Source: a virus
Length of the DNA stretch: 64,000 bases
Strand: one strand, 5' to 3'
Virus record (IMG/VR): IMGVR_UViG_3300008267_000007
Span: 1-64,000 of that record
The notes under the pieces are model-generated. The model had not been told where the DNA came from and did no database searches. It was given only the letters and a program-made list of their open reading frames with translations. How positions within the stretch are numbered: the stretch's first letter is position 1; each line of letters begins with the position of its first letter. A program made the position numbers and the translations under genes. Positions 33,993 to 51,526 of this stretch are shown here, one piece after another.

Positions 33993-34037
33993 GATAATAA
34001 ATTTATCTTTCGTATATTTAGGTATAAATAAGAAATT

Positions 34038-34394
34038 ATGGCAAAAGGTAGACCTATTGAAAACGACGATGTTATAAAGATCTATACTCAAGAGTTTAGA
34101 GACCATACAGGTGAAACTTTTACTTGGGAATGGGATAAAACCCAATTCAAAAACGGACCATTAAGTGTTGAAGTTAAAGACCCAACTTGGACCACATTTG
34201 ACAAGAAGGAAAAACAATTAGCAGCTTTATTATCCAAATATGAATCAAATGGTAAAGAACGTAAACAACGTATTACTAAAGCTGATAAATTGGAAATTGA
34301 AACCCTAGAAAGTGAAATAAATGAAATGTGGTATAATAATTTTCCAGAGGATAGACCAAAAGTTAGAAAACAACGAACTTCTAAAACTAAATAA
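34038..34394 (+). CDS. hypothetical protein
   Basis: Promoter motif at 34009. Confidence 0.7.
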   Translation: MAKGRPIENDDVIKIYTQEFRDHTGETFTWEWDKTQFKNGPLSVEVKDPTWTTFDKKEKQLAALLSKYESNGKERKQRITKADKLEIETLESEINEMWYNNFPEDRPKVRKQRTSKTK

Positions 34395-34708
34395 TGAAAG
34401 CTAAAAAACTTAAAATGCGAGATATGGATTCGGTATTAGAATATACTGAAAATAATCCTAAAATTCTCCATGATCAAACTTATAATATGTTAAGTAAAGC
34501 TTGGAATAAAAGGAATAAAATATCAATGATTACTTTATTTGCTATAGAGTTAACTCACGATGAAGATTTAGATCAAGCTATCCTAACCATTGATGAACAT
34601 GAATGGGAAAAAGCTTTAGAGTTAGGATTAAAGTATTATGAAAGCATAGAAGATTATGAACAATGTTCAAAAGTAAATAATTTATTAATATCAATTAAAA
34701 ACAATTAA
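34394..34708 (+). CDS. hypothetical protein with C-terminal EDYEQC motif
   Basis: Paralogous to 31276..31602. Confidence 0.65.
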   Translation: MKAKKLKMRDMDSVLEYTENNPKILHDQTYNMLSKAWNKRNKISMITLFAIELTHDEDLDQAILTIDEHEWEKALELGLKYYESIEDYEQCSKVNNLLISIKNN

Positions 34709-34712
34709 GATT

Positions 34713-34919
34713 ATGGCCTATTTTTTAACAAGTGTAGAAATCGTTGATATGAGCGATAAAGGTAAACAAACAAAAATGAGAGAACAATATTTAGTAGACG
34801 CAGTAAGTGTTACGGATGCAGAAGTAAAAGTTACAAAAATGTTTGAAGATGAAGGAATGTCAACAGACTTCCAAGTAAAAAGTGTTAAGGAAACAAAAAT
34901 ACTTCAAGTAATAGAATAA
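34713..34919 (+). CDS. DUF4494-like protein (Bacteroidota-type)
   Basis: EQYLVDAVSVTDAE motif. Confidence 0.7.
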   Translation: MAYFLTSVEIVDMSDKGKQTKMREQYLVDAVSVTDAEVKVTKMFEDEGMSTDFQVKSVKETKILQVIE

Positions 34920-34978
34920 TTCTACCCTGCCCTCCATACTTACATCCGTATATACTAACCTATGTATAATTACATTCT

Positions 34979-35248
34979 ATGAAACAGCTATTCCAATACC
35001 ATGATACACTATATTTAGTAGTTAGGGCAATGCCTATACATCAATTTCACGATAAAACCGGCGTATTCAATAATGAAAAATTAAAAGCATGGAAGGAGTG
35101 GTTAGGATGTGATCATGTATTAAAACACAATGAGATGTACTTGTTTGTAGAGACAATACCGGAATATGAGTTTGAAGAATTACCCCAATGGGATGAAGAA
35201 CACGCATTAGATTTGGTTTTAAATAATATATTAGAAGAAAATGAATAA
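34979..35248 (+). CDS. hypothetical protein
   Basis: ORF track. Confidence 0.65.
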   Translation: MKQLFQYHDTLYLVVRAMPIHQFHDKTGVFNNEKLKAWKEWLGCDHVLKHNEMYLFVETIPEYEFEELPQWDEEHALDLVLNNILEENE

Positions 35249-35289
35249 TAGTTTTGGTGTGTTCCTTGGATTTACATATATTTATTATC

Positions 35290-35856
35290 ATGGAACCGAC
35301 AATAATATATTATTTACACAATGGGAATGAAGTTCCATTTTACGTAGGAAAAACCAATAAGTTAAGTTTTAGAATTGGTCATCATAGAAAAACCTATGGT
35401 AATAACATTCAAATGGAAGTATTAGATATTGTAGATACAGATAATTGGGTATTTTGGGAACGTTATTGGATATCTCAATTTAAAACATGGGGTTTTAATC
35501 TAACTAATGCTAATGATGGGGGTGGTGGGTTAACTAAATGTGATTTCGGACCTGAACGTGGGAAGAAAATTTCCCAATCAAGTAAGGGTCAATCTCGAAG
35601 TAATAAAGGTAAACCCTTCACCGAAGAGCATAAAGCTAAAATTAAAGCCAAACGGGGCCATCTTAAAGAAAGAAAAAATACTTGGACTTTAATTCAAGTA
35701 ATTCAATTAGATTTAGAAGGTAATTTTATTAAAGAATGGGAATCACAAACACAAGCCCAACTTTATTTTAATAAACCTAATAGTGATGGAGTAGGGGCAT
35801 GCTGTAGGGGAGAACAAAAAACCGCTTACGGTTACAAATGGAAATTTAAAAATTAA
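35290..35856 (+). CDS. free-standing GIY-YIG homing endonuclease with NUMOD3/NUMOD1-like repeats
   Basis: IYYL...FYVGKT...R, E.YWI, LTN..DGG, FTEEHKAKI, QLDLEGNFIKEWES, CCRG..KTAYGYKW. Confidence 0.85.
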   Translation: MEPTIIYYLHNGNEVPFYVGKTNKLSFRIGHHRKTYGNNIQMEVLDIVDTDNWVFWERYWISQFKTWGFNLTNANDGGGGLTKCDFGPERGKKISQSSKGQSRSNKGKPFTEEHKAKIKAKRGHLKERKNTWTLIQVIQLDLEGNFIKEWESQTQAQLYFNKPNSDGVGACCRGEQKTAYGYKWKFKN

Positions 35857-35862
35857 ATAAAT

Positions 35863-36114
35863 ATGAAAACAGTATTGAAATACGGAGGTACCTGGTGCGG
35901 ACCTTGCAAAGTTTATGCTCCTAAATTTGAACAAATTAAAAATGAAATGAACGGTATAAAATTTGAATCCATAGATGTTGATTCAGGTGATCCAAGAATA
36001 TTGGAGCATGGGATTAGAAACGTTCCAACTACAGTAGTAATTGATGAGAAAGGAAACGTTCGTAAGCAAACTGGGGTGATGAATGTAGATCAATTGAGAG
36101 CATTTATTGGATAA
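35863..36114 (+). CDS. thioredoxin
   Basis: WCGPC, VPT. Confidence 0.92.
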   Translation: MKTVLKYGGTWCGPCKVYAPKFEQIKNEMNGIKFESIDVDSGDPRILEHGIRNVPTTVVIDEKGNVRKQTGVMNVDQLRAFIG

Positions 36115-36137
36115 AATAAAATTTATATATACAAATT

Positions 36138-36173
36138 AGGCTCCCTTTGGGAGCCTTCGTATATTTAAGTATA
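36138..36173 (+). promoter_or_regulatory. hairpin fused to promoter motif (start of promoter array)
   Basis: AGGCTCCC-TTT-GGGAGCCT runs directly into TTCGTATATTTAAGTATA. Confidence 0.75.
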
Positions 36174-36193
36174 GAAATGGAAAAATAAAAGTT

Positions 36194-36667
36194 ATGGTAG
36201 ATTTAAGAAATTGCAAGCCTGGTGACAAATTAATATCAAAACATGGTTTAGTATTAGAGTACGTACGTCCGTTACCTGAGGATGGTTATATGGATCATGA
36301 GGTAAGGTATCCTGACGAAGCTCCTTACAAAGGTAGTATAGGAACTAGAACTCACGAGGGATACGTGATGAGAAGGAAGAGACTTGAAGAGGATCATGAT
36401 ATTGTAAGAATAGTTAGTAGTGAAGTTATGAAAGTAGAAACACTTGAAGAAGCTGCTGAAAGTTATATACCACAGTCAAGTAGATGGACTTTGAAAGAAA
36501 TTTTTATTGATGGTGCTAAATGGCAACAAGAAAGAAGTTATAGTGAGGAAGATATGGAAAAAGCTATTAAATTTGGAGCTGATGGAATGTATGGTTGGCA
36601 AATGGGAGAAGAAGGATACTATGTTAATCAAGTAAAAAGATTTTTAGAAACATTTAAAAAGAAATAG
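36194..36667 (+). CDS. hypothetical two-module protein (C-terminal GAKWQQERSYSEE family)
   Basis: 41-bp identity with 582..622. Confidence 0.72.
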   Translation: MVDLRNCKPGDKLISKHGLVLEYVRPLPEDGYMDHEVRYPDEAPYKGSIGTRTHEGYVMRRKRLEEDHDIVRIVSSEVMKVETLEEAAESYIPQSSRWTLKEIFIDGAKWQQERSYSEEDMEKAIKFGADGMYGWQMGEEGYYVNQVKRFLETFKKK

Positions 36668-36671
36668 TACT

Positions 36672-36863
36672 ATGGACTTTAGAACAGAACTATCAAAATG
36701 GGGTTACAATAAAGGTGACTCAATTGATGTTGATATATTGGTTAATGAAATACTACCAAGTTTATTTTCTCAACAAGAGAAAATATGTGATTCAGAAGTG
36801 ATCCAAAGAATTAGAGCAAGTAAGTCTGACGCAGAAGCCAGAAGAATTATTAGAACAATTTAA
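36672..36863 (+). CDS. hypothetical protein
   Basis: ORF track. Confidence 0.6.
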   Translation: MDFRTELSKWGYNKGDSIDVDILVNEILPSLFSQQEKICDSEVIQRIRASKSDAEARRIIRTI

Positions 36864-36876
36864 AAAGAAATAAGTT

Positions 36877-37068
36877 ATGACAGTAGGAGAAATAATGCAA
36901 GCCTTAATTATGGCTGAGGATTACAACAAAGTAAGAGTAAATGTATCTGATGAATTTATTAATATGGCTAAGGCTATGTTAGGGGATTTTGTATACATTA
37001 AGGAAAAAGAAGAAAAGTACCAGAAGGTGGTACAAGTTCTTGCAGACGCCGGAATTAAATTAAAATAA
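36877..37068 (+). CDS. hypothetical protein
   Basis: Paralog of 985..1236. Confidence 0.65.
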   Translation: MTVGEIMQALIMAEDYNKVRVNVSDEFINMAKAMLGDFVYIKEKEEKYQKVVQVLADAGIKLK

Positions 37069-37071
37069 AGC

Positions 37072-37368
37072 ATGGGAAAAGAAACATTATCAGATTTCAT
37101 TAGAAGGATCTATTTAGAGAGGGCATCAGAGATGCCAGCACTTAGTGCTATGGACTTTGAAGATGCAATCTATTTAGGAGTACAATGGCAGAAGGATCAA
37201 ACCGAGATGGAGGCTAAGGAACTAATTAAACAGTACACAGCTAATCTCAATAGAGTAGAAGTTATAGATTATAGTAAAGGGGGAAGAGCATACACCAACT
37301 ATAGTGTGAGGGGTGTTCAAATATCATTTCAGGATAAAGGAGAGACATTAAAAGTGTTTGTAAAATAA
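37072..37368 (+). CDS. hypothetical protein
   Basis: ORF track. Confidence 0.65.
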   Translation: MGKETLSDFIRRIYLERASEMPALSAMDFEDAIYLGVQWQKDQTEMEAKELIKQYTANLNRVEVIDYSKGGRAYTNYSVRGVQISFQDKGETLKVFVK

Positions 37369-37377
37369 TTATAAATT

Positions 37378-37644
37378 ATGGAGAAAACCGGAAATACTGA
37401 ATCGTTAAAGTATGATTTTAATACTGCTTCAAATTTAGAGGTTTTTATGCCTAATTTAGATGGTTGGTATAGAGTTACTTCAAGGGAATTTAGATCATTT
37501 AATGGTAAACGACGTATCAATAGTGAACCATATAGTGGTAAAACATACTATTATGCTACAAATAGAATTGCAGACTTGTCTATATCAGAACCCGATAAAA
37601 TAGTAGAACATAATTGGAAAAGTGTTAGGAGACCTGGTGATTAA
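37378..37644 (+). CDS. hypothetical protein
   Basis: ORF track. Confidence 0.65.
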   Translation: MEKTGNTESLKYDFNTASNLEVFMPNLDGWYRVTSREFRSFNGKRRINSEPYSGKTYYYATNRIADLSISEPDKIVEHNWKSVRRPGD

Positions 37645-37866
37645 TTCGTATATTTAAGTATTAATAATAAAAACGGAGGTTATGAAAATTATTTACATGG
37701 AATGTACTTTAGCTCTACTTGCAGGTATTAACCCAATTATGGTTGAAGAATTATCTAAACAGGGTAAATTGAAACAAAATGAAATTACAAGGTATTTAGT
37801 AATTGAAGATTAGGTTTATTAAAATAGATTTCGTATATTCAAGTATAATAAGTAAAAATAAAAGTT

Positions 37867-38481
37867 ATGGAAGTAAAAATTTACAGAGAACCAGAAAATG
37901 AGTCTCTAATTTTAGATGAAGTTCAATTAGCAGAGTACAATTCAATAGCTCTAGAGCTTGGTCTCGCTACACATGAAAATGTAGAAGCCGAAAATGTACC
38001 TAATGTTTATATCAGTCTTAATACCGCTATGGAGAAACAGCTTAAAGCTATTTGTCCTATGAAAGTAGATGCTGCTGAATATAAAAAGTCAACTATCCCA
38101 TTGGAGGTACTGAAAGTATATAAATTCTGTAAAGACAATAATATGTTTGATGGGTATCATATTTGGTATAATGATGTTGATCCTGATCCAATGTTAATAG
38201 GTTGGAATTGGAAATCAGAAAATGACAAGAAAAACAATTACACATGGTGTATAAACAGGTTCTTAATTGCTCGTTGGGGAGATTGTGCATTAGAACTTCC
38301 TGAATTACTTGAATTAGGTTTTCAAAAAATGAAACAAGAAGTATTAGACAAAGCACAGTCTGCAATAGATAAATGTAATGCAGTTTTATCTAATCCAGAC
38401 CTTCACATTAGAAAGATATTAAGTAATACAACTGATTCGGATATTACATTACAAATTAACTCATCAGGAACAATTTATTAA
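37867..38481 (+). CDS. hypothetical protein
   Basis: Promoter motif at 37830; DPMLIG...ARWG. Confidence 0.75.
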   Translation: MEVKIYREPENESLILDEVQLAEYNSIALELGLATHENVEAENVPNVYISLNTAMEKQLKAICPMKVDAAEYKKSTIPLEVLKVYKFCKDNNMFDGYHIWYNDVDPDPMLIGWNWKSENDKKNNYTWCINRFLIARWGDCALELPELLELGFQKMKQEVLDKAQSAIDKCNAVLSNPDLHIRKILSNTTDSDITLQINSSGTIY

Positions 38482-38482
38482 A

Positions 38483-38677
38483 ATGGAAAAATTAGGAGTA
38501 TTTTTAGGGGCAATTGGGGTATTAATATTAACAGCGGTATTATTAGCTTTGCCTGTACAATGGCTTTGGAATGAATGCTTAGTAGGGGCAGTAGAGGGAG
38601 TTCATGAAATTAGATTTTGGCAGGCCTTAGGAATTACATTTTTGTTCAACATGTTGTTTAAACCAAATAATAAATAA
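38483..38677 (+). CDS. small two-TM membrane protein
   Basis: WLWN...FWQALG hydrophobic pattern. Confidence 0.7.
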   Translation: MEKLGVFLGAIGVLILTAVLLALPVQWLWNECLVGAVEGVHEIRFWQALGITFLFNMLFKPNNK

Positions 38678-38680
38678 GAT

Positions 38681-38863
38681 ATGACAGGAAATTATTATCA
38701 AGTAGTATTAAAAACAGGTAAAACTCACCCTTCACTTTATGTTAACATTCAAACTGCTATTAAAAAGGTAGGAGCAGAAAATATAAAGCAGATTAAGGAA
38801 ATTAGAAGAGAATTAGTGGACACTAAATACACTGAGATTGTTGGTACAGTAAATATAGATTAA
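38681..38863 (+). CDS. hypothetical protein
   Basis: ORF track. Confidence 0.55.
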   Translation: MTGNYYQVVLKTGKTHPSLYVNIQTAIKKVGAENIKQIKEIRRELVDTKYTEIVGTVNID

Positions 38864-39088
38864 TTTGGCTTTATAATTTTTAATTCGTATATTCAAGTAT
38901 TAATAATTAAAAACAATAAAGGTTATGATTTACTATGAAGGGTATAAGATATCATTAAATGATTATAATTATGATAATGGCTTACATACTAAATATGTAT
39001 TTTACAACATAGATAACAGTGATGATCCACATTTACATGGTACAGGGATGAGTGTTGAAGATTGTGAAAAACAAATAGACGAACTAAT

Positions 39089-40216
39089 ATGGTAAAAGTA
39101 TTCCCAACATTATATAAACGTTCTAATAGTAAAGAACATATCAATCAATGGCAAATTGAAGTTGATGGAGATAGTTTTAGAACCACAACTGGATTTGTTA
39201 ATATGAAGCAATTCACTGGTGACTGGACTAAATGTGAGCCTAAAAATATAGGTAAAAAGAATTCTACAACTTCTGAAGAGCAAGCGTTATTTGAAGCCAA
39301 TGCTATGTTTACTAAACGTAAAGATTTAGGTTATTGGGAAGATATTAATAATTGTGATAAGAAGGTGTTTTTTACACCAATGTTAGCACAAGATTATGAT
39401 AAACGTAAAGATAAGGTTAAATTTCCAATCCTATCACAACCTAAACTAGATGGTATTAGATGTGTAGTCAAATCTGATGGGATGTGGACTAGAAATGGTA
39501 AAGAAATTATATCTGCACCTCATGTGTATGAAAATTTAAAGCATATATTTGATTTACAACCTGACCTAGTATTAGACGGTGAATTGTATACTTCAAATAA
39601 GGACGTTGATTTTAACACTATTATTTCATGTGTTAGAAAAACTAAACCAACACAAGCTGATTTGGATTTGTCTGCTCAATATATTGAGTATTGGATGTAT
39701 GATATGTTAGATCCTAATGAAGTTGATTATGGTTATGAAGGGAGATGTGAAAATTTATTTGATTTAAAACGAGAATTTAATTTAGACCCGTTTATTTATA
39801 AAGTAATTGCAACTTATGAATTACCTGATGCTAAACAGGTAAATGAACAGTTAAGTCATTATATTGAACAAGGGTTTGAAGGTCAAATATTAAGAGACCC
39901 AAATTCATTATATGAAAATAAACGTTCCAATGGTTTATTAAAACATAAAACATTCCATGATGATGAGTTTAAGATATTATCAGTTAATGAAGGAGTAGGT
40001 AAATTTGCTAACAAAGCCGCTACTATGTCATTCCAAACACCAGAAGGAGTTAAATTTGACTCAACTATTAATGGTACAATGGAGTATTTAGAAGAAATAT
40101 GGGCCATTAAGGATCAATTAATAGGTAAGTTAGCAACTGTTAAGTATTTTGAAAAAACAACTGATGGTTCATTAAGATTTCCTAAAGTTATTCAAATAGA
40201 TCGTTTGGATATGTAA
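39089..40216 (+). CDS. ATP-dependent DNA ligase
   Basis: PMLA, KLDGIR (motif I), LDGELY, EGQILR, LLKHK, SLRFP. Confidence 0.93.
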   Translation: MVKVFPTLYKRSNSKEHINQWQIEVDGDSFRTTTGFVNMKQFTGDWTKCEPKNIGKKNSTTSEEQALFEANAMFTKRKDLGYWEDINNCDKKVFFTPMLAQDYDKRKDKVKFPILSQPKLDGIRCVVKSDGMWTRNGKEIISAPHVYENLKHIFDLQPDLVLDGELYTSNKDVDFNTIISCVRKTKPTQADLDLSAQYIEYWMYDMLDPNEVDYGYEGRCENLFDLKREFNLDPFIYKVIATYELPDAKQVNEQLSHYIEQGFEGQILRDPNSLYENKRSNGLLKHKTFHDDEFKILSVNEGVGKFANKAATMSFQTPEGVKFDSTINGTMEYLEEIWAIKDQLIGKLATVKYFEKTTDGSLRFPKVIQIDRLDM

Positions 40217-40339
40217 AATATATTTCGTATATTTAAGTGTTAAAAAGATATGATATGAAAAATTTAAAAGACTTTAGTTTAGCAATGTTATTATGGTTAG
40301 CATTTTATTTAGGAGCAATGCTGCTAATGTAATTAAAAT

Positions 40340-40429
40340 AGTCAGGTGGTGAAATGGTAAACACATGGTAGGCACTGTCCCCATATAGGTGAGAAACCTT
40401 GACTACAGGTTCGAGTCCTGTCCTGACAA
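40340..40429 (+). ncRNA. tRNA-like RNA 1 (type II body, non-canonical anticodon arm)
   Basis: GTCAGG/CCTGAC acceptor, GTG-AAATGGTAAA-CAC D-arm, AGGT-GAGAA-ACCT variable arm, ACAGG-TTCGAGT-CCTGT T-arm. Confidence 0.75.
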
Positions 40430-40438
40430 CAAATACAA

Positions 40439-40560
40439 GGTTCCTGAGATAAAGGATTAACTTAGCACTAACTAACTAAATACTTAAACTCCAGCATAAA
40501 GGTTTGCGACCCCAGTTAGTGATGGTGGTGGAAAGATAGGTTCAACTCCTGTAGGGACTA
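40439..40560 (+). ncRNA. tRNA-like RNA 2 (acceptor + T-arm, long insert in place of anticodon arm)
   Basis: GGTTCCT/AGGGACT acceptor, ATAGG-TTCAACT-CCTGT T-arm, CACTAACT/AGTTAGTG stem. Confidence 0.65.
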
Positions 40561-40569
40561 CTAAATAAA

Positions 40570-40651
40570 ACTCTATAAGATGTTATTGTCTCTAGTCTAG
40601 AATAGATTCAATGATACGATTCGTAGCTCCAAGGGTAGTGGCTTATAGAGT
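40570..40651 (+). ncRNA. putative structured RNA
   Basis: ACTCTATAAG/CTTATAGAGT 10-bp closing stem with internal hairpins. Confidence 0.4.
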
Positions 40652-40658
40652 ACCTGGA

Positions 40659-40734
40659 GATCAAGTAAGTTAAAAAGGTATAACATTCTGTCGAAAGGCA
40701 GAAAGGGTTGCAGGTTCGAATCCTGTCTTGGTTG
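40659..40734 (+). ncRNA. tRNA-like RNA 3 (anticodon arm capped by GAAA tetraloop, or an 8-nt loop)
   Basis: GATCAAG/CTTGGTT acceptor, GTTA/TAAC D-stem, TTCTGTC-GAAA-GGCAGAA, GCAGG-TTCGAAT-CCTGT. Confidence 0.75.
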
Positions 40735-40737
40735 CAA

Positions 40738-40799
40738 AAATAAAGAGAACCGTTATCTGCACCTTCGAGGTAGTAGAGAGCAGACGTCATACTTTATTT
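40738..40799 (+). ncRNA. putative structured RNA
   Basis: AAATAAAG/CTTTATTT closing stem, TCTGC/GCAGA, ACCT-TCG-AGGT. Confidence 0.4.
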
Positions 40800-40804
40800 A
40801 AATT

Positions 40805-40873
40805 TATTGTGTAGTCTCAGTGGTGGAGCTAGTCAAAATAAGACTGCAGTAGGTTCGATTCCTACCACAATAT
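40805..40873 (+). ncRNA. tRNA-like RNA 4 (loop AAAATAA, no U33, very short variable region)
   Basis: TATTGTG/CACAATA acceptor, CTC/GAG D-stem, TAGTC/GACTG stem, GTAGG-TTCGATT-CCTAC. Confidence 0.72.
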
Positions 40874-41045
40874 CAAAGAAATTAATTTAAAACCCAACAA
40901 AAATGAGTAAAAATAGTGCGAAGAAGAATTACCAATCATTAATTGAGTGGTTACCAACTTTAAATCAACCTAAAGTTAAGAAAGAGTTATCAACAACGAA
41001 ATTTTCCAAAGCGGATCATTATAAACAAAACGGAGTGAAATAATT

Positions 41046-41210
41046 ATGACAAGACGACAACAACTTATTAAAGAGGTAAAGGGACTAAACATCAAAACTA
41101 TTAGACCCGCGCATATGTGTACAACAGAGTATTTAGAATCAATAGTAAGTACTCCTAAAGCAGAGAAAGTAAGTTTTTTTAAAAGATTTCTACAGGGTGT
41201 TGGATTTTAA
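41046..41210 (+). CDS. 54-aa protein homologous to the N-terminus of the AT-hook protein
   Basis: Read by hand: MTRRQQLIKEVKGLNIKTIRPAHMCTTEYLESIV... Confidence 0.65.
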   Translation: MTRRQQLIKEVKGLNIKTIRPAHMCTTEYLESIVSTPKAEKVSFFKRFLQGVGF

Positions 41211-41349
41211 GTAACTTTTCGTATATTTAGGTATAATAATTAGATATATGAAAAAAGTACAATTCACAATGCAAGAAATTTGGGCAGCGTCACGACACAT
41301 TGTTCAAAAGAATAAGAAAAAGTATAATCGTAAAGAAAAGCATAATAGA

Positions 41350-41371
41350 AAGGACCCTAATAAGGGTCCTT
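41350..41371 (+). terminator. hairpin/terminator
   Basis: AAGGACCCT-AATA-AGGGTCCTT then ATTT. Confidence 0.6.
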
Positions 41372-41452
41372 ATTTAGTTTGTTAATAAGGGTTTTGAGAA
41401 GTATAATAAATTTCGTATATTTAAGTATTATTAATTTAAAACAACAAAGGTT

Positions 41453-42253
41453 ATGAAAAGTTTAAAAGCATTATCAAAAGAAGAATTACAATCATTAGCT
41501 CCTTCAGTTTTCAACCACACAATTAAACAAGGTTTGACTGATAAGTATGTTCACATCCCTACTGACACAATTGTTGAAGACATGGAAGCCTTAGGTTGGT
41601 TTCCATACGAAGTTAAAACAGTTCGCTCCAGAACCAAAAATGCTGCTACTAAAAAGCATTTAATTCAGTTTTTTAACCCTGATATTGTAATCAATAATGA
41701 AGCAGGTGAAGCTGATATGTACCCAGCATTACTTTTAATTAATTCTCATGATGGTTCAACAGCTGTTAGGTTTGAAATGGGAGTATTTAGAATGGTTTGT
41801 TCAAATGGTTTGGTTATTAAATCTCAAGATTTTGGAGGATTTAAAATGAAACATATGGGGTATTCATTTGAGGATTTACGTAATTATATTAGTGAATTAG
41901 TAAATACCTTACCAATAGTTGTTGAAAATCTTAACAAATTTTCTCAATTTGAAATGACACCTGAAGAACAATACACTTTTGCTGTTAAAGCGGTTGAAGC
42001 AAGATTTGGCGAAGAAAAACAATTACCTGAATGTGAAATCAACAATTTACTAACTGCTGATAGAAAAGAAGATGAAGGTAATTCAGTTTGGGTGGTTTTG
42101 AATAGAGTTCAAGAAAAATTAACAAATGGTGGTTTTGGTTACCTAAATGTTAAAGGTAAGCCAAGAAAAGCAAGAGCTGTTAAAAATTTCACACAAGACT
42201 TGTCAATGAACCAAAAATTGTGGGAATTAGCTGAGGAATTTATTGCATCATAA
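41453..42253 (+). CDS. DUF932/DUF945 family protein
   Basis: APSVF, LINSHDGS, GVFRMVCSNGLV, W..LNRVQE. Confidence 0.85.
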   Translation: MKSLKALSKEELQSLAPSVFNHTIKQGLTDKYVHIPTDTIVEDMEALGWFPYEVKTVRSRTKNAATKKHLIQFFNPDIVINNEAGEADMYPALLLINSHDGSTAVRFEMGVFRMVCSNGLVIKSQDFGGFKMKHMGYSFEDLRNYISELVNTLPIVVENLNKFSQFEMTPEEQYTFAVKAVEARFGEEKQLPECEINNLLTADRKEDEGNSVWVVLNRVQEKLTNGGFGYLNVKGKPRKARAVKNFTQDLSMNQKLWELAEEFIAS

Positions 42254-42332
42254 TTGAAATTTAATAAAAGGAAGGGGATCTACGGATCTCCTTTCGTATA
42301 TTACAGTATATTAATAAAAAATATAAAGGGTT

Positions 42333-42731
42333 ATGAGTAGAATAGCGGTTCAATTCAAAGATAAACCAGACATAGTAATTTATAAAATTGTTGGTTTTAC
42401 AAAAGATAAACATGACATATTAATGGAAAATGTTAAGGATTTTCTTAAACACCCATTAATTGAATCATATGAGATGATTGAAGATAAACACAAGGCAGGC
42501 CATAATGAAGGTGGAAGTAAAAACTATGAATCCAAATATGAAAGGGAAAATAATAAATTACCTAAAGCAATCGCTAAGGAGGTAATTCAAGTAGCTACTT
42601 CATTAAAGGGTTGTACTAAAGACACTATTGATCGATGGAACACACATTTAGATTTTGACTTAAATGAAAAATTAAATGGTAAGTATGGATTTACTGGTGC
42701 TAAAAGATTATATAATATATTTGGCTTGTAA
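42333..42731 (+). CDS. hypothetical protein
   Basis: Own promoter motif at 42293, preceded by a hairpin. Confidence 0.7.
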   Translation: MSRIAVQFKDKPDIVIYKIVGFTKDKHDILMENVKDFLKHPLIESYEMIEDKHKAGHNEGGSKNYESKYERENNKLPKAIAKEVIQVATSLKGCTKDTIDRWNTHLDFDLNEKLNGKYGFTGAKRLYNIFGL

Positions 42732-42787
42732 ATTTTAAATTCGTATATTTAAGTATTAATAAGATAAATAATTAAAAAATAAAGGTT

Positions 42788-43525
42788 ATGAAAAATTTAG
42801 AAGAACAAAAAGCAATCGTTTTAGTAAGAAAAGAAGAATTAGAAAACAAAAGAGCTGAAATTTATGTTAGAGAGAAAGCTGCAATGGGAGAAACTATAGG
42901 AAGCTTCTTCAAAACATTCCCTCAAGATGTAGAGATTACAGTAAGTAGTGGTTCAGTTTATTTCAAAATAGATCATCCAGATTACTCTTACAAAAAGGAA
43001 TTATTTAATTTATATTTAAGAGAGAATTGGAGTGAGGATGGAAGAGCTTACAATGGGGTTGATTTGTCTTATTATACAACTTCGACAAAAGGAATGGATA
43101 GTTGGGAATTGAAAAGGTTACAATTGTTAGGTAAGTTAGCTGAAATTGTTTTTGAAGATCAAGAAAAGATAGTTGATGCTGCAAACAATACTGCAAATGA
43201 GTTTAAAGAAGAATATAAAGAGGTTTATGCTGAATTACAAATTGTAGGAAAAGAGTTAGGGGAGATAAATGAAAAGATAAAGGTAATTAAAGATCATGAA
43301 ACTGAGATTAAATTACGTAGTGAAGAAGGAGTAATGTTTGATAAGGAGGTACATATTGAATTAAAAAGAAATTACACTGCTAGAATTGCTAAAATCAAAA
43401 TAGTTGAAATTAAAGGTAAAACTTGTACAGTTGCAATTGAAACAAATAATAATTATAAAACAACAGAATCAAGAGTAAATGTTGAAAATCTTATTAGACA
43501 AGTTAAGTATCATAGTGCATTGTAA
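42788..43525 (+). CDS. hypothetical coiled-coil protein
   Basis: Own promoter motif at 42740. Confidence 0.75.
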   Translation: MKNLEEQKAIVLVRKEELENKRAEIYVREKAAMGETIGSFFKTFPQDVEITVSSGSVYFKIDHPDYSYKKELFNLYLRENWSEDGRAYNGVDLSYYTTSTKGMDSWELKRLQLLGKLAEIVFEDQEKIVDAANNTANEFKEEYKEVYAELQIVGKELGEINEKIKVIKDHETEIKLRSEEGVMFDKEVHIELKRNYTARIAKIKIVEIKGKTCTVAIETNNNYKTTESRVNVENLIRQVKYHSAL

Positions 43526-43588
43526 TTAAAGGAAGGGGATTTTATATCCCCTTTTCGTATATTTAAGTATAATTGAAAAATAAATGTT

Positions 43589-43792
43589 ATGGAAAGTAAA
43601 GTAAATGAATTAAGAAATGCAATAGGTAAAGAATTTAGTGATAATCATTCTAATACCTTACGTTCAGTTTTATTAAGTGTTTCCAAATGTGGTAACGTTT
43701 GTTATACAATGAGTGTAGATTCTTATGATAAAAAAGGAGGTAAAATAAGTAAACAACCTAGTTGGTTAACTTGGAATGCTATGTTTTATTAA
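43589..43792 (+). CDS. hypothetical protein
   Basis: Own promoter motif at 43554. Confidence 0.7.
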   Translation: MESKVNELRNAIGKEFSDNHSNTLRSVLLSVSKCGNVCYTMSVDSYDKKGGKISKQPSWLTWNAMFY

Positions 43793-44028
43793 AGGAATTT
43801 GAGATTATAAATGAATTTCGTATATTTAAGTATTAATAATTTAAAACAATAAAGGTTATGTCACACCCATCAAATCAGGAATTTTTAGAATATTGGACGG
43901 AATTTTATATGAATCAAGGAATTGATTTAGAAAGAGCAATTGAGTTAGCTGAGAAGGAATTGAATGGTTGGGATTAAGTTCGTATATTTAAGTATAAGAA
44001 AAATTAATAATTTAAAACAATAAAGGTT

Positions 44029-44340
44029 ATGGCAACTAAAACAGAAAAAAGTACAAATGGAACTTCATTTCATGATGTAACAATTAAAGCAAGTGCTCAA
44101 GATTTAATTAATGTATTTGGTGAACCAACTATTCAGGATAATACAGGTGAAGATAAAGTTAATATGGAGTGGTGCATGGAAACTGAAAGTGGAGATGTAT
44201 TTGCAATATATGATTGGAAGTATTATAGAAAATTAGAATTAGATGAAATTGTTGAGTGGCACGTAGGAGCTCATTCAAGAAGTATTTCAGGTGAAGCTCA
44301 ATACGAAGTGATGAGGGAGTTAGGTAATTATGTTGAGTAA
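44029..44340 (+). CDS. hypothetical protein
   Basis: Own promoter motif; FGEP...IYDWK...WHVG. Confidence 0.75.
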   Translation: MATKTEKSTNGTSFHDVTIKASAQDLINVFGEPTIQDNTGEDKVNMEWCMETESGDVFAIYDWKYYRKLELDEIVEWHVGAHSRSISGEAQYEVMRELGNYVE

Positions 44341-44650
44341 AGCAGAAATTGCAAGGTATTTAAGTAAAGAAGTTAATGCTTCTAAAGGTGAATTGGTACA
44401 GTTCTTACATTCAAACTTCTATAAAGATGGATTAAATGAAGAGCAGTACCTTCATACCTTTAAACAATTTATAATTGAATTAAATGAATTCTTACTTGAT
44501 TCAAAAGAATTTAGTATAAATGATACCTTTCTTAAAAACAAACCATTTACTACTTCTAAAATACCTAAAAAAGTATTAAAGCAAATGGAATTAGATTATT
44601 TAGAGAATCAAAAGTCTATAGAACAAATAATACGGGAAATAGATAATTAA
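44330..44650 (+). CDS. hypothetical protein
   Basis: ORF track. Confidence 0.6.
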   Translation: MLSKAEIARYLSKEVNASKGELVQFLHSNFYKDGLNEEQYLHTFKQFIIELNEFLLDSKEFSINDTFLKNKPFTTSKIPKKVLKQMELDYLENQKSIEQIIREIDN

Positions 44651-44707
44651 TTCAAATTTCGTATATTTAAGATGTAAGAAAGATAAATAATTAAAACAAC
44701 AAATGTT

Positions 44708-45061
44708 ATGACTCGAGACTTCAGACCTTCACAAGTTCAATTAGATTATTTGAATGTAGATATGATTCCTCACTTGGAGAAATTAGGAATAGATGTAGAG
44801 AATTATGAATATGAAATTAAAGTAATTGAATGGTACAATTGGGATCATAAGCCAAGATGGTTTGTTCATATCTCAAAGTATTCTGGATTAGGTAAAAAGG
44901 TAGGATATGTAGAAGTTGATATGTACTGTAATGGATATAATGGAGAGGATCATCCACTTGGAGATATCTCAATAGAATTAGCAGATCATGGATTTCCTTG
45001 CATAGCTACTACTATAGTTCGACTTGAAGATGATGGATATGTTATTACAGAAGTTGAATAA
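44708..45061 (+). CDS. hypothetical protein
   Basis: Own promoter motif at 44658. Confidence 0.7.
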   Translation: MTRDFRPSQVQLDYLNVDMIPHLEKLGIDVENYEYEIKVIEWYNWDHKPRWFVHISKYSGLGKKVGYVEVDMYCNGYNGEDHPLGDISIELADHGFPCIATTIVRLEDDGYVITEVE

Positions 45062-45123
45062 AAAAGTTGCTTACTAAAATAAAATTCGTATATTTAAGTA
45101 TTATAAATTTAAAAATAAAGGTT

Positions 45124-45309
45124 ATGAATATAGAAGATTTAAGAGGAAGAGAATTTATTTATCACAATGATGAATCAACTGTGTATATTGTAGGTAGAGG
45201 AAAAGATGGTAAAACTGTGATTAACTGGAAAGGTTCTGCAGATACTACAGTATACAGAGATGGTGAGATTGAAAATTTTTTTGAAAGAGGAAGATGGATT
45301 TTATTGTAA
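45124..45309 (+). CDS. hypothetical protein
   Basis: AAAGGTTATG start after promoter motif at 45085. Confidence 0.7.
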   Translation: MNIEDLRGREFIYHNDESTVYIVGRGKDGKTVINWKGSADTTVYRDGEIENFFERGRWILL

Positions 45310-45373
45310 AAAAGTTGTTTAGTATTAAAATCTTTCGTATATTTAAGTATTAATAATAAAATAAATAAAAGTT

Positions 45374-45640
45374 ATGGAAAATCTAGTAGAACAATTGTTA
45401 AAAGAAACTGCAAACAAACGAATTTTTACAGTAACATTTGTAAAAAAGGACGGTAGCATTAGAAAAATGAATGCTATGAGAGGTGTTAGAAAAGGTGTTA
45501 AAGGTGTAGGTTATAGTTTTAACCCTTCAGAAAAAAACCTATTAACTGTATATGATATGAAAATAAAAGAATTTAGATTTGTAAATTTGAATGACGTGTT
45601 ATCATTTACTGCTAATAAAAAGAAATTTGTAAAGGAATAA
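45374..45640 (+). CDS. SH3-like beta-barrel protein (DUF2693/WYL_2-like)
   Basis: FTVTFVKKDGSIRKM...VYDM..KEFR. Confidence 0.65.
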   Translation: MENLVEQLLKETANKRIFTVTFVKKDGSIRKMNAMRGVRKGVKGVGYSFNPSEKNLLTVYDMKIKEFRFVNLNDVLSFTANKKKFVKE

Positions 45641-45692
45641 TTTAGAAAATAAAATTTCGTATATTTAAGTATAATTTAAATAATAAAAGAAA

Positions 45693-45899
45693 ATGGAAAC
45701 AGTAAATTATGCAGGTTTTGAATTTAAATTTGATTACAATTACCAACCAGCAGAAAAACAAACTTGGGATTATCCAGGTTGTGACGAGAGTTTTGAGATA
45801 TTTAATGTTACTTTAAATAACATTGATGCCTCAGAATTGCTTGAGAGTCAAATTGATGAGTTTGAAGAAGAAGTAATTAATATGCTTAAAGGAAGATAA
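45693..45899 (+). CDS. small acidic hypothetical protein
   Basis: Own promoter motif at 45656. Confidence 0.7.
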   Translation: METVNYAGFEFKFDYNYQPAEKQTWDYPGCDESFEIFNVTLNNIDASELLESQIDEFEEEVINMLKGR

Positions 45900-46104
45900 T
45901 ATGAGTAAGAAAAATAAATCGGTTTGGAATGAACCTACTGAAAAGGAACCAGATGTGTATAAAATTATTAAAGATGAAAATCTTGATAGTTTACTCAATG
46001 AGGGACTAGATGAAGATGATTTTGATTATGAGTTAGGATATGACGATGAATACTAAAAAGTAATTCGTATATTCAAGTATTATTAATTTAAAACAATAAA
46101 GGTT

Positions 46105-46359
46105 ATGCTAGACACGTATAATGACAACAATTTCAATTCCAACAACCCTGATAACTTTCCAGAGGAAGATTATTTAGATTATTCATTAATTGACAATATT
46201 GTATTTGGGGGAATTGACCCTGAAGATCATCCTCACTATTGTGACGCTTATATTGAAAGTGCAGACTATAATGGAAGAGAATTAACAGAAGCTGAATTGG
46301 AAGTAATTAATTTAGATATTAGTTATTGGCATATGGATATTGTAGAAGCAGCATTTTAG
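46105..46359 (+). CDS. very acidic hypothetical protein
   Basis: About 21 D/E vs 1 R and 0 K in 84 aa. Confidence 0.7.
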   Translation: MLDTYNDNNFNSNNPDNFPEEDYLDYSLIDNIVFGGIDPEDHPHYCDAYIESADYNGRELTEAELEVINLDISYWHMDIVEAAF

Positions 46360-46422
46360 ATAAGGAATTTGATTAATAAATAATAGTTCGTATATTTAAG
46401 TATAATAATAAAAATAAAAGTT

Positions 46423-46674
46423 ATGGAAAATGCAACATATAAAAAGATAGAAGGTAAAAACCTAATAATAGGAAATACATACTATCTAGATAATGGTGGA
46501 ATAAATAAAGCAATCTATGAGGGGATAATGGAAGGTGGTGCCGGGAAAGATAGATGTTTATTCACTCCCATAGGACATACACAATACTTTTTGTATGATG
46601 ATTCTCACCATGGGGGGGGATATGGGGGAATGTTTACTATATGGACTGAAGGGAACTTTTATGAGAAGGAATAG
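46423..46674 (+). CDS. hypothetical protein
   Basis: Own promoter motif at 46387. Confidence 0.7.
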   Translation: MENATYKKIEGKNLIIGNTYYLDNGGINKAIYEGIMEGGAGKDRCLFTPIGHTQYFLYDDSHHGGGYGGMFTIWTEGNFYEKE

Positions 46675-46729
46675 TATATTATAATTTAATTTCGTATATT
46701 TAAGTATATTAATAATAAAAACAAAGGTT

Positions 46730-47074
46730 ATGAAAACTACAAAACAAAATGTTATCGCTCAGGTTCAAAATTCAGTTAGTTCAATCTTTTCAAAAGAAGA
46801 TGTAATTAATTTAATCAATTCTATTCAAGCAGATAGAGTAATTACTACAAGAGATATTGAAAGAGCAATTGATAGTGTTGTAAGTAATTTTGAAATGAAC
46901 AATCAAGATGTTGTTGAACTTCATACTGCAGAATTTAATATTGGGTATAACAATCAATTAGAAGTTGACAACGTTGGTTTAAATTTAGATTATATTAGAG
47001 AAGCACTTGAAAATCAATTTATGGATTTTGGTGAAGTTGAAAATGATGAAGAAGTAGATTTAAATAAAATATAG
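46730..47074 (+). CDS. hypothetical protein
   Basis: Own promoter motif at 46691. Confidence 0.72.
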   Translation: MKTTKQNVIAQVQNSVSSIFSKEDVINLINSIQADRVITTRDIERAIDSVVSNFEMNNQDVVELHTAEFNIGYNNQLEVDNVGLNLDYIREALENQFMDFGEVENDEEVDLNKI

Positions 47075-47136
47075 GTAATTAATTATTAAAATAAAATTCG
47101 TATATTCAAGTATTAATAAGATAAAAACCAAAACAC

Positions 47137-47325
47137 ATGACATTACAGGTAGTAAATCCAACATTAGAAAAGTTCAACCAATTCAGAACTACAACTAAAA
47201 CATTGTTCCAAGATGTTAAGGAACGAGGGTGGAATATAAAAGATTGTAAAGTAACAGAATTAAAAGAGGAATTAATACATACCTTATACCGAAGTGCAGA
47301 TGGAAAAAACTGTGCCAGGAATTAA
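47137..47325 (+). CDS. hypothetical protein
   Basis: Own promoter motif at 47097. Confidence 0.6.
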   Translation: MTLQVVNPTLEKFNQFRTTTKTLFQDVKERGWNIKDCKVTELKEELIHTLYRSADGKNCARN

Positions 47326-47373
47326 CAACATAATTGTTTCATAACCAATTATTATTTTTTAATTATACTAGTG

Positions 47374-47396
47374 AATGGTCCCTTAAGGGGACCATT
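47374..47396 (+). terminator. hairpin/terminator
   Basis: AATGGTCCCT-TAA-GGGGACCATT followed by T-rich tract. Confidence 0.6.
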
Positions 47397-47481
47397 TATG
47401 TTTTAAAGAATGAATAGTTTATTATAATATAATTTCGTATATTTAAGTGTTAATAAGATAAATAATTAAAAAATAAAGGTC

Positions 47482-47760
47482 ATGACAAAAGATCAATTCA
47501 CATCAAGAGAATCATTTAAAGTAAAAGGAGAAGGAAATTACAAAGGGGCTTGCACATTTAAGTTTAATGGAGATCACCTATGGAAAGAGACTAGATCTTC
47601 AATAGATGATTCAGTATTGTTTACTTCTTATCATTTAAACATAGACAAGATAACTAAAGTAGGCTTTGAAGGGTTTGTTTATGTAATGTCTAAGTTAGTG
47701 AAAGTTAAATACAGATTTGAGGATTTAGTAGAATTTGAAATCGAGGAAGCGCTTAATTAA
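47482..47760 (+). CDS. hypothetical protein
   Basis: Own promoter motif at 47434. Confidence 0.7.
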   Translation: MTKDQFTSRESFKVKGEGNYKGACTFKFNGDHLWKETRSSIDDSVLFTSYHLNIDKITKVGFEGFVYVMSKLVKVKYRFEDLVEFEIEEALN

Positions 47761-47815
47761 AAGCGCTTTCGTATATTTAAGTGTTAATAAGATAAATAAT
47801 TAAAAAACAAAGGTT

Positions 47816-48082
47816 ATGGAAATTAAATTAAATACTGAAGCAAAGGGAAATAGAATTAATAAATTTTACCTTGAGGCATTGGATAAAATAGCTAGCGCTG
47901 CTGAAGATGGTTATGATTTAACTGAACATGTATTTCCAAAAGATATATATGATGAAGTGAGAACTAAAATAAATGAACATATGAAAGCATTTAATGTTGA
48001 ATTTGTTTGGCCAAGTATAGGTAATATGAGTAGTGTTGCTGTGGGGGACGGTCGTTTAATGAGATTTAAACTATTAAGTTAG
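47816..48082 (+). CDS. hypothetical protein
   Basis: Own promoter motif at 47768. Confidence 0.7.
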   Translation: MEIKLNTEAKGNRINKFYLEALDKIASAAEDGYDLTEHVFPKDIYDEVRTKINEHMKAFNVEFVWPSIGNMSSVAVGDGRLMRFKLLS

Positions 48083-48141
48083 GGTATTTGAGAGTATAAA
48101 TTAGTTTCGTATATTCAAGCATAATTAAATAAGTATATATC

Positions 48142-48324
48142 ATGGAAAGCAGATTTGGAATTGAATTAAAGGTATTGGAACAAGCCCTAGAAAATATGAA
48201 GGTAGGAGGCTATTTAGGTAAGGATAGTACAATTGAGGATTTGGAGGACATGGCATATTCATGTTGTGAAGGAATAGATTGGTATGCCAAAAAGAAGTTA
48301 TATCAATGGGCGAGTGAACTATAA
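48142..48324 (+). CDS. hypothetical protein
   Basis: Own promoter motif at 48106. Confidence 0.65.
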   Translation: MESRFGIELKVLEQALENMKVGGYLGKDSTIEDLEDMAYSCCEGIDWYAKKKLYQWASEL

Positions 48325-48677
48325 TTTAAAAAATCAAAGGTTATGAAAAATGAATTAGAATTATTATTAGAAAAATTAGAAGCAGTTGAACTTCAATTAG
48401 TTGAAAATAATATTATCCAAGATGAAGGTAGATTGAGTGATGCTTTAGGTGTTATCAAAAGTAAAATAATGGATAAAATAAATAAGGCATATTAGAGTAT
48501 AAATACATTTCGTATATTCAAGTATAATAATAAAAAATAAAATGTTATGAAAGCAATTAAGGTATTATCAGTTAAAGTTGGAATTGTATTGAGAGAAATG
48601 GCTAGTGGAGCAGGTACTGCTTTGAGATCATAAAAACAGTTCGTATATTTAAGTGTAATAATTAAAAAACAAAGGTT

Positions 48678-48989
48678 ATGTTAAATACAACTTATTTAGG
48701 TAGAGAAATCACAAGACGTGATAACGTGAAAGTAGAAGGTACATTCAGCTCAGTTCATGAAGCAGAAAAACGATTGAAGGGAATGGGTTATATAATAGGA
48801 AGTATGTGTGGGGGTGATCCAATAGGGTTCGCATGTGAGGAAAAATATAACTACATCTCAAAGTGGCATAACATGAATAGAGAAGATCAAAACAAATTAG
48901 ATGGGGTAATGATCTCTAGTAATTGGAGAGAAGGCAGTGTTGAAATAATATGGTTTATGGAACCAAAAACCGCAAAACAAGACATATAA
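48678..48989 (+). CDS. hypothetical protein
   Basis: Own promoter motif at 48640. Confidence 0.72.
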   Translation: MLNTTYLGREITRRDNVKVEGTFSSVHEAEKRLKGMGYIIGSMCGGDPIGFACEEKYNYISKWHNMNREDQNKLDGVMISSNWREGSVEIIWFMEPKTAKQDI

Positions 48990-49120
48990 TATCAGCAACA
49001 CGGGGGACGAGAAGAATAATACTACACACGTGGGGGAAAGATATCAAAAGGCATAACGTATTATAAATCAATTTCGTATATTCAAGTATAAGAAAGATAA
49101 ATAATATAAAAACAAAGGTT

Positions 49121-49309
49121 ATGAAAACAGAAATGGGGTTAATCGACAAAGTAATTGTTATAGATGGAATGTTAAACAAATTGGGGTATGACACTTCTAA
49201 AATGACGATGGATGAAATGCTGGATATAAAAAATGCTATAGAAAAGGCGGTGGTAAAGGCACAACTGCCTGTGAAGGGTTATGAACACCCATCTAAGGTA
49301 TTAGTTTAA
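49121..49309 (+). CDS. hypothetical protein
   Basis: Own promoter motif at 49073. Confidence 0.65.
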   Translation: MKTEMGLIDKVIVIDGMLNKLGYDTSKMTMDEMLDIKNAIEKAVVKAQLPVKGYEHPSKVLV

Positions 49310-49320
49310 GTAATGTGGAG

Positions 49321-49357
49321 AGACTTCCCCGCGGTGGAAACACTGTTGGGGAAGTTT
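49321..49357 (+). other. 16-bp GNRA-capped hairpin (terminator or ncRNA part)
   Basis: AGACTTCCCC-GCGGTG-GAAA-CACTGT-T-GGGGAAGTTT. Confidence 0.6.
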
Positions 49358-50644: not shown

Positions 50645-50655
50645 TAATGTATAAT

Positions 50656-50681
50656 GGGGGGTTAATAGTTAGCCCCCCTTT
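50656..50681 (+). terminator. hairpin/terminator
   Basis: GGGGGGTTAA-TAG-TTAGCCCCCC-TTT. Confidence 0.65.
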
Positions 50682-51498: not shown

Positions 51499-51526
51499 AT
51501 ACCCGCCATACAAATTAGTATATGCC

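Follow-up and report, generated by a model that had tools for sequence, protein, structure and literature searches.

What is to be made of a run of transfer RNA (tRNA)-like sequences, not one of which has a usable anticodon loop? The question arises in the first 64 kb (hereafter the window, meaning this whole stretch of DNA) of the IMG/VR virus record IMGVR_UViG_3300008267_000007, a linear record of 111 kb, approximately 65% complete and with a G+C content of 31%. Downstream of an ATP-dependent DNA ligase gene four tRNA-like elements and two stem-closed spacers occupy positions 40340 to 40873. In these elements the tRNA body (acceptor stem, T arm and, for the most part, D arm) is kept, and the anticodon and variable arms are replaced; the first element is a member of a large phage family in which the body is conserved and the middle varies. 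On the evidence set out below we consider it probable (about 0.6) that the array is an accessory cassette of four tRNA-bodied, non-decoding small-RNA genes in the region of early small genes of a ~170-kb phage, in which the body serves as a handle and the middle is the working part.

The four elements lie at exactly the coordinates that the first-pass annotation of this DNA had given them, and the two further stem-closed elements that it had noticed in the gaps (spacers A and B) do fold in that way, with closing stems of 8-10 bp. The parts of the array are as follows.

40340..40429, + strand: element 1, a member of the tRNA-Leu-bodied family described below (Rfam tRNA model, 38.9 bits; family model R1, 64.7 bits)
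40439..40560, + strand: element 2, a 122-nt tRNA-like RNA, recognised by sequence and fold
40561..40658, + strand: spacer A, a unit with a 10-bp closing stem (CUCUAUAAGA/UCUUAUAGAG-type) and an inner hairpin (fold z -1.4)
40659..40734, + strand: element 3, a 76-nt cloverleaf with a Leu-type body (Rfam tRNA model, 37.6 bits; R1, 26.1 bits, E 0.0035)
40735..40804, + strand: spacer B, a stem-closed unit (AAUAAAGA/ACUUUAUU) enclosing a UUCGA-capped hairpin (fold z -2.85)
40805..40873, + strand: element 4, a 69-nt tRNA-like RNA (called by relaxed ARAGORN; homologues in contigs L175, L177 and L182)

The first-pass annotation had described acceptor and T arms that are intact beside anticodon arms that are aberrant, and the count agrees: of the 48 pairs in the acceptor and T stems of the four elements 47 are intact, whereas none of the four has a usable anticodon loop. 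The acceptor stem of element 1 has six pairs and an A:A mismatch at 1:72; those of elements 2 and 3 have seven pairs each, two of them G:U; and that of element 4 (UAUUGUG/CACAAUA) consists of seven Watson-Crick pairs. Each T arm has a 5-bp stem and a loop of the UUC(G/A)A type (TTCGAGT, TTCAACT, TTCGAAT, TTCGATT). In all four elements, each of which was inspected, the canonical arrangement (anticodon stem of 5 bp, loop of 7 nt, U33, purine at position 37) is absent. In element 1 the decoding arm is a stem of 4+2 bp with a UA bulge and the loop CACUGUC, with A at position 33; its middle as a whole reads as a bulged hairpin followed by a second hairpin, AGG-UGAGAAA-CCU. In element 2 some 90 nt, including a perfect 8-bp helix (CACUAACU/AGUUAGUG), stand in place of the anticodon arm, and a D-loop-like AAAGGAUUAA is present. 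The decoding arm of element 3 is a 7-bp stem capped by a GAAA tetraloop, and that of element 4 a 5-bp stem with the loop AAAAUAA and A33. No CCA is encoded after the 3' end of any of the four, again in agreement with the original description: A73 of element 1 is followed by CAA, and the discriminators of elements 3 and 4 are G73 and U73, respectively. Element 3 has a cloverleaf as its minimum free energy fold, formed spontaneously (z -3.4).

Programs that search for tRNA genes respond to this anatomy in different ways. Run with default settings on the whole window, ARAGORN reported no tRNA and no transfer-messenger RNA (tmRNA); with relaxed settings it called all four elements, giving them odd or undetermined anticodons. 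The Rfam tRNA model (RF00005, gathering threshold 29 bits) accepted elements 1 and 3, at 38.9 and 37.6 bits, only by skipping the anticodon region; element 4 (~17 bits) and element 2 (no score) fell below the threshold. In Rfam the array, searched at a lax E-value, and 26 loci, searched at the gathering threshold, matched tRNA only.

The first element has relatives in many other phages. Its ends match those of an aberrant 105-nt element in G001, the closest relative of the phage and a complete 168-kb genome with terminal repeats; the middles of the two are unrelated. IMG/VR was searched with an exact pattern comprising ends of the element 1 type with 55-85 free bases between them, and this returned at least 131 matches in at least 120 loci, among them at least 122 different sequences between 87 and 117 nt long. 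A covariance model of the family body built in the present analysis (R1) gave, at E<1e-6, 155 matches in 100 loci, many of them copies that the exact pattern had missed; these elements are 68-190 nt long and are typically separated by spacers of 60-130 nt. Tandem arrays are common, with approximately 10 copies in L042 and four to five in each of L129, L113, L050 and L061. The layout seen in the window is thus the usual layout of the family. Canonical tRNA genes are also present in 64 of 120 loci and, when nearby, are on the same strand. A search of the literature found no description of such a family, which seems not to have been described before and is not a separate family in Rfam.

What is conserved in the family is the body. 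Each pair of the acceptor stem AGUCAGG/CCUGACU is unchanged in 135-146 of 146 distinct sequences, and the T arm varies hardly at all. Covariation is seen in the D stem (C-G is replaced by U-A in nine sequences, and other types of change occur), none of 500 shuffles reaches the observed pairing values of the body, and sliding the partner strand by one to three columns drops the pairing from 98% to 26-41%. A rare second body with the same D and T arms, found in only three contigs among the matches, has the fully compensated acceptor stem UGUUGUG/CACAACA. Element 1 itself fits the family acceptor (with A73 and C74) save for A in place of U at position 72; it has a Leu-type D arm (A14, A15, G18G19 and the covarying D stem GUG/CAC), a T arm of the RCAGG-UUCGAAU-CCUGU type and an R1 score of 64.7 bits.

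Constant ends flanking a variable middle need not have been selected as RNA. The constant halves could be homology arms for the exchange of cassettes at the level of DNA, the RNA shape being a relic; the same ends do occur in phages with two terminase types, and lake contigs join ends like those of element 1 to other units (with short flanks only). The compensatory changes in the D stem and in the variant acceptor UGUUGUG/CACAACA point to selection at the level of RNA, and we hold exchange modules of this kind to be extremely improbable.

A canonical anticodon arm (a 5-bp stem and a 7-nt loop with U33 and a purine at 37) was found in just one of the 146 family members, a 70-nt sequence resembling Lys-UUU; shuffled middles give 1.4 on average. 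Two short members, at L061:13032-13101 and L079:4958-5029, combine the family acceptor and T arm with normal-looking Lys-UUU and Ile-UAU anticodon arms, so the family body can also host a decoder. Could the elements in the window then be decoders of an unusual kind, element 3 reading a four-base codon through the 8-nt loop UCGAAAGG, and elements 1 and 4 reading through loops with A33? ARAGORN can indeed draw element 3 with an 8-nt loop and the anticodon GAAA. Against this, that loop closes to a 7-bp stem with a GNRA tetraloop and no U33, elements 1 and 4 have A33, canonical arms stand at chance level in the family, and the ORFs downstream of the array are intact and conserved in phages that lack it. 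Unusual decoding is, on these grounds, barely credible.

The body is of a leucine type. After the family itself, the best matches to R1 are the tRNA-Leu(UAA) and tRNA-Leu(UAG) genes of the relative (38.5 and 31.8 bits). Among the 146 sequences A73 is present in 135, U8 in 145, A14 in 138, A15 in 137, G18 in 141, G19 in 139 and U48 in 118; A73 is followed by C in approximately 92% of the family, and CCA is encoded in four of the 146. Leucyl-tRNA synthetase (LeuRS) of E. coli needs A73, the A15-U48 pair, G18G19 and D-loop contacts with the T loop, and can dispense with the anticodon and variable arms (PMC9976931). Judged by sequence, the determinants of LeuRS are present in element 1 and in 81-100% of the family. 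It is plausible that the family body is charged with leucine, for it keeps just what the E. coli enzyme needs and replaces just what that enzyme does not need. With canonical bacterial and phage tRNA-Leu the family shares a D arm of the GGCGGAAUUGGUAGACGC type, A73, the A15-U48 pair and the T loop; it differs from them in having no anticodon stem-loop, in an acceptor stem unlike that of the phage's own tRNA-Leu genes and in a middle that extends to 95 nt or more.

If the body is constant, what of the middles? They measure about 20-95 nt (median 51), fall into dozens of classes, several of which recur in different contigs, and are slightly more structured than shuffled sequences (mean z -0.74). 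Compensatory change was tested in a single class, that with the invariant end GGUGGUAUAAAU: its five members share an 8-bp helix directly after the D arm, with three compensatory pairs. The middle of element 1 belongs to a class shared with L063, L120 and L038, in which a hairpin is followed by the layout AGG-UGAGAWR-CCU. The first hairpin has a 7-nt loop of variable sequence and inner pairs that change from GG/CC to GC/GC; in the second, one member has gained a pair on both sides. An alternative drawing of element 1, as an intron-bearing Leu-GAG tRNA (ARAGORN -i, with a 19-nt insert at a non-canonical site), was rejected: there is no splicing system, and the loop is not kept in the relatives.

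The nature of the middles bears on a rival view, which grows out of the decoy idea of the first-pass annotation and in which the body itself is active. Here the RNAs would be decoys or inhibitors that compete for or block a host factor which binds tRNA through the acceptor stem and elbow, such as an anticodon nuclease (PrrC/RloC-type), a Schlafen-type tRNase, a toxin that modifies the CCA end, or LeuRS, and the middle need only be uncleavable and non-decoding. A body conserved in sequence beyond the needs of folding would be expected on this view, and the cassette lies in a variable early region of the kind typical of counter-defence genes. There is also precedent: phage tRNAs are known to counter defences that target tRNA (PMC10264068). 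Yet a decoy leaves unexplained why there are dozens of classes of middle 20-95 nt in length, why the one class tested, GGUGGUAUAAAU, has compensatory changes and an invariant single-stranded motif, and why a genome carries several different members. We consider it unlikely that the body alone does the work.

The remaining elements are less easily traced. The family acceptor AGUCAGG/CCUGACU is shared neither by elements 2 and 4 nor by element 3, which has GAUCAAG/CUUGGUU and G73. The T arm of element 3 is nonetheless identical to a family variant with G49, present in 24 of 146 sequences, and of the four acceptor pairs that differ from the family two are changed on both sides; we read element 3 as a probable diverged Leu-type relative with a minimal, tetraloop-capped middle. 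A homologue of element 4 was found in three metagenome contigs (L175, L177 and L182) of a related phage, whose neighboring ORF has 85% protein identity to window 37867-38481. It has in common with element 4 the acceptor stem, where one pair has changed in a compensatory way, the complete T arm and the flank on the 3' side; the D arm differs, and the middle is just 19 nt. A further relative of element 4, abundant in one lake sample, has other flanks and 3 nt fewer in the 'anticodon' loop. The last 31 nt of element 2 show 90% identity to the end of a canonical tRNA-Met(CAU) in a 148-kb phage contig; this tRNA was the one match in a search with the 3' half, and no full homologue was found. Exact scans of IMG/VR with the 3' halves of elements 3 and 4 gave no matches. 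Spacer A had no homologue in 153 loci. For spacer B a pattern search gave one chance match, inside a coding region, and a near-identical unit occurs in a 218-nt lake contig (depth 365), where it is preceded by a different tRNA-like 3' end.

By these likenesses the four elements seem to derive from tRNAs of different types, one type Leu-like and another with a Met-like 3' end. All of them have lost the same arm, and when this is taken with the family data, random decay is a difficult explanation to sustain. The argument for decay would be that the array is an eroding duplicate of a tRNA cluster, at least as regards elements 2 and 4 and the spacers. It can draw on the lack of close homologues of element 2, element 3 and spacer A, on the 1:72 mismatch of element 1, on the absence of the array from close relatives, and on a normal tRNA array that the phage probably has in its unassembled part. 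It must contend with four abnormal decoding arms beside T loops that are all intact and acceptor and T stems that have lost only one of their 48 pairs; with a body kept through 146 distinct sequences in the family of element 1; with relatives of element 4 that retain acceptor stem, T arm and flank (including a compensatory pair) while the rest differs; and with a stretch that stays noncoding and rich in G+C amid a densely coding genome. Pseudogenes should show changes over all arms and no conservation in relatives, and neither element 1 nor element 4 does so. We therefore regard decay as quite improbable. The proposal of the first-pass annotation, that these are non-decoding tRNA mimics and not plain pseudogenes, is well supported for element 1, and to a lesser degree for elements 3 and 4.

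The surroundings of the array provide further information. All large ORFs of the record are on the + strand. The ligase gene ends at 40216 and the small ORF pair begins at 40903; within the ~690 nt between them there is a single plausible coding frame, for a 25-aa peptide at 40255-40332. The features that flank the array are these.

40224..40238, + strand: phage promoter-like motif TTCGTATATTTAAGT, heading the transcription unit; 31 copies in the window
40255..40332, + strand: small ORF of 25 aa (MKNLKDFSLAMLLWLAFYLGAMLLM), a possible hydrophobic membrane peptide, which stops 7 nt 5' of element 1
40903..41210, + strand: two small ORFs, of 46 and 54 aa, closing the unit; conserved also in L005 and L006, where there is no array

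At 40224, where a promoter had been proposed, lies the promoter-like motif TTCGTATATTTARGT; the window contains 31 copies of it, each on the + strand, where chance would give 0.06. Thirty of the copies lie within 34009-51219 (the other is at 421), and most precede small ORFs; the set looks like the phage-specific promoters of a long run of small early genes. As the next copy 3' of the motif at 40224 is found only at 41218, the array and the small ORFs that flank it form one unit. The region has the appearance of early, accessory genome content. The array (534 nt) has a G+C content of 40.1%, compared to 31% for the genome, which places it in the top 0.8% of equal-sized windows. A perfect 9-bp hairpin at window 41350-41371, AAGGACCCT-AATA-AGGGTCCTT followed by a T-rich stretch, has the look of a terminator on either strand and stands directly before the next promoter motif.

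Related phages were located by way of the ligase gene, which yielded 11 loci. In none of these did ARAGORN or Rfam find a tRNA within 4 kb of the ligase gene. The first-pass annotation had named canonical tRNAs at this place in relatives as the finding that would speak for plain pseudogenes; the slot contains small ORFs instead. In the two closest relatives, L005 and L006 (ligase gene at 91% nucleotide identity), window 40262-40883 is replaced by approximately 230-260 nt (5178-5439 in L005 and 5148-5376 in L006), carrying in each case an unrelated small ORF of ~70-90 aa behind the same promoter-like motif. Because the nearest relatives have small ORFs in the slot, the array is an accessory cassette. 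A family member of 129 nt, with a G:U pair in its acceptor stem, lies at L008:8920-9048, ~3.8 kb downstream of a ligase gene with 75% protein identity, which indicates that the family occupies different places in related genomes.

Does the phage have an ordinary set of tRNAs as well? At 44-51 kb G001 carries some 22 canonical tRNA genes, together with several aberrant tRNA-like genes. The ends of our record map to ~32 kb and ~87 kb of G001, around its tRNA region, from which it follows that the corresponding region is missing from the record; the phage probably has a normal tRNA array in its unassembled part. With the normal tRNA region outside the record, the array in the window is an extra cassette and not the tRNA set of the phage. 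Just upstream of the tRNA array of G001 (43500-52500, our locus L036) are two further aberrant tRNA-like genes, on the reverse strand at 1776-1861 and 1880-1966 of that locus; for one of them relaxed ARAGORN draws an 8-bp acceptor stem and a UUA 'stop' anticodon.

The position of the array within one promoter-to-promoter unit, between ORFs, also invites the idea that its elements are processing punctuation: signals for RNase P and RNase Z that separate or stabilise the flanking ORFs or free the spacer RNAs. That the spacers are closed by stems would suit such a role. However, a minihelix suffices for RNase P, and yet the D arm, G18G19, A73 and the pair 15-48 are all retained in the family; the downstream ORFs occur without the array in L005 and L006; and most family members are found among tRNA genes, not between ORFs. 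Punctuation appears to us very improbable.

We return to the reading set out at the start, that of tRNA-bodied small-RNA genes with exchangeable middles. Under this reading the unit would be transcribed from the motif at 40224, host RNase P would cut at the 5' end of each element, a host 3' nuclease would trim after the discriminator and the host CCA enzyme would complete the end. Neither the record nor the complete relative G001 encodes a CCA enzyme, RtcB or peptidyl-tRNA hydrolase, so maturation, which is what the anatomy of the elements leads one to expect, would depend on the host. Four stable, L-shaped RNAs, and perhaps two spacer RNAs, would be released. Their constant body would provide a handle for processing, for stability and for binding by proteins that recognise tRNA, and the variable middle, as a structured module, would bind a host or phage factor, or mimic one, in takeover or counter-defence.

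Several observations count against this reading. The fold energies of elements 1 and 2 are no better than those of shuffled sequences, element 1 has the A:A mismatch at 1:72, and the G73 of element 3 is unfavorable to LeuRS in E. coli. Element 2, spacer A and element 3 have no close homologues, and selection on these three taken alone is unproven for that reason. Sampling by exact pattern inflates the apparent invariance of the body, although the copies found later by R1 alone are equally conserved. A search for antisense targets of the middles and spacers, in the genome itself and in the tRNA region of the relative, gave matches no longer than those of shuffled controls. No protein co-occurs with the family: the commonest neighbor cluster, present at 18 of 132 loci, is a terminase. 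Finally, two contigs from RNA libraries touch the region, one spanning 40816-41028 and the other with a relative of element 1; they are few, may represent DNA carry-over and are uninformative on transcription, ends and strand.

A wider proposal, which we advance only tentatively and think doubtful as it stands, is that freshwater phages may use an invariant, leucine-chargeable body as a universal scaffold for a library of RNA effectors (aptamer-like binders, mimics and sponges), with cassettes exchanged between unrelated phages. The window would then present a set of four effectors, made early and directed against host functions or defences.

There are partial precedents. The phage T4 RNAs C and D (RNAC and RNAD, also species 1 and 2) are small, stable, non-decoding RNAs of the tRNA cluster, with tRNA-like ends, and are processed together with the tRNAs. 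They resemble the present elements as phage-encoded, tRNA-like, non-decoding RNAs among or beside tRNA genes. The family described here differs in having one near-invariant Leu-type body in more than 100 phages, a modular middle and tandem arrays, and in being found in no cultured phage searched. In the engineered 'tRNA scaffold' a structured RNA cargo replaces the anticodon stem-loop, and the acceptor, D and T arms are kept; the architecture is the same as that of the present family, the one being a laboratory design and the other natural.

Phage tRNAs that evade nucleases (T5-type, with altered anticodon loops) also differ from host tRNAs in the region of the anticodon loop, and are interpreted as part of a conflict over tRNA (PMC10264068). 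Those tRNAs decode and keep a 7-nt loop, unlike the present elements, which have no usable anticodon.

Like tmRNA and YrlA, which are tRNA mimics, the elements have a T arm, an acceptor-like stem and a large part that is not tRNA. Neither identity was upheld: for tmRNA, the ARAGORN search was negative, Rfam gave no match, element 2 has no G3:U70 and there is no tag reading frame; for YrlA (Y RNA), Rfam gave no match, and the ends of the elements form the acceptor stem, whereas in YrlA the two ends make up the Ro-binding stem, at the opposite pole of a tRNA-like domain that is closed at its acceptor end.

Odd tRNA genes in phages are usually dismissed as pseudogenes or errors of prediction; one of those in the window is a member of a family with high abundance in lake viromes. 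Should the middles be effectors, they would constitute a large untapped natural set of small RNAs in the conflict between phage and host, and modular RNA expression would have a precedent in nature. Should the body be charged with leucine and yet not decode, the question arises of what use phages make of aminoacyl-tRNA mimics. In either case the family gives a concrete means of testing ideas about non-decoding tRNA-like RNAs, of which T4 RNAC and RNAD are examples and which have been a puzzle for 50 years.

Where, then, does the family occur? The runs that contain the window sequence are freshwater and lake metagenomes. Four sequencing runs were compared, all as contigs, in which uncovered parts carry no meaning. 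Pieces of the array are present at 97-100% identity in two lake metagenomes from different studies, and the array is accordingly not an artefact of assembly. In one lake sample k-mers of the family body reach a depth of 200-750, compared to ~12 for the unique parts of the phage (20-60x). Among cultured phages blastn found no match to the array, and for a family member, searched at a lax threshold, the sole matches were of a generic kind, to the T arms of ordinary tRNAs. In 185,579 species genomes there were 12 matches to the family, all of them in contigs of metagenome-assembled genomes (MAGs) from water samples. Six are labelled Bacteroidota, a weak hint at the host, since these may be phage contigs placed in bins. 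Three MAG contigs of 118-254 kb that bear family members (L159, L161 and L164, labelled Chitinophagia, Bacteroidetes and Peribacteria) may themselves be large phage genomes or prophages that were binned with cellular DNA. The neighbors of the family include two different terminase types, showing that it crosses phage lineages. A gene for a DUF932 protein lies near the array in the window (41453-42253); DUF932 genes are also present in eight family loci, and in L110 (4474-5283) one stands directly beside a tRNA-like element.

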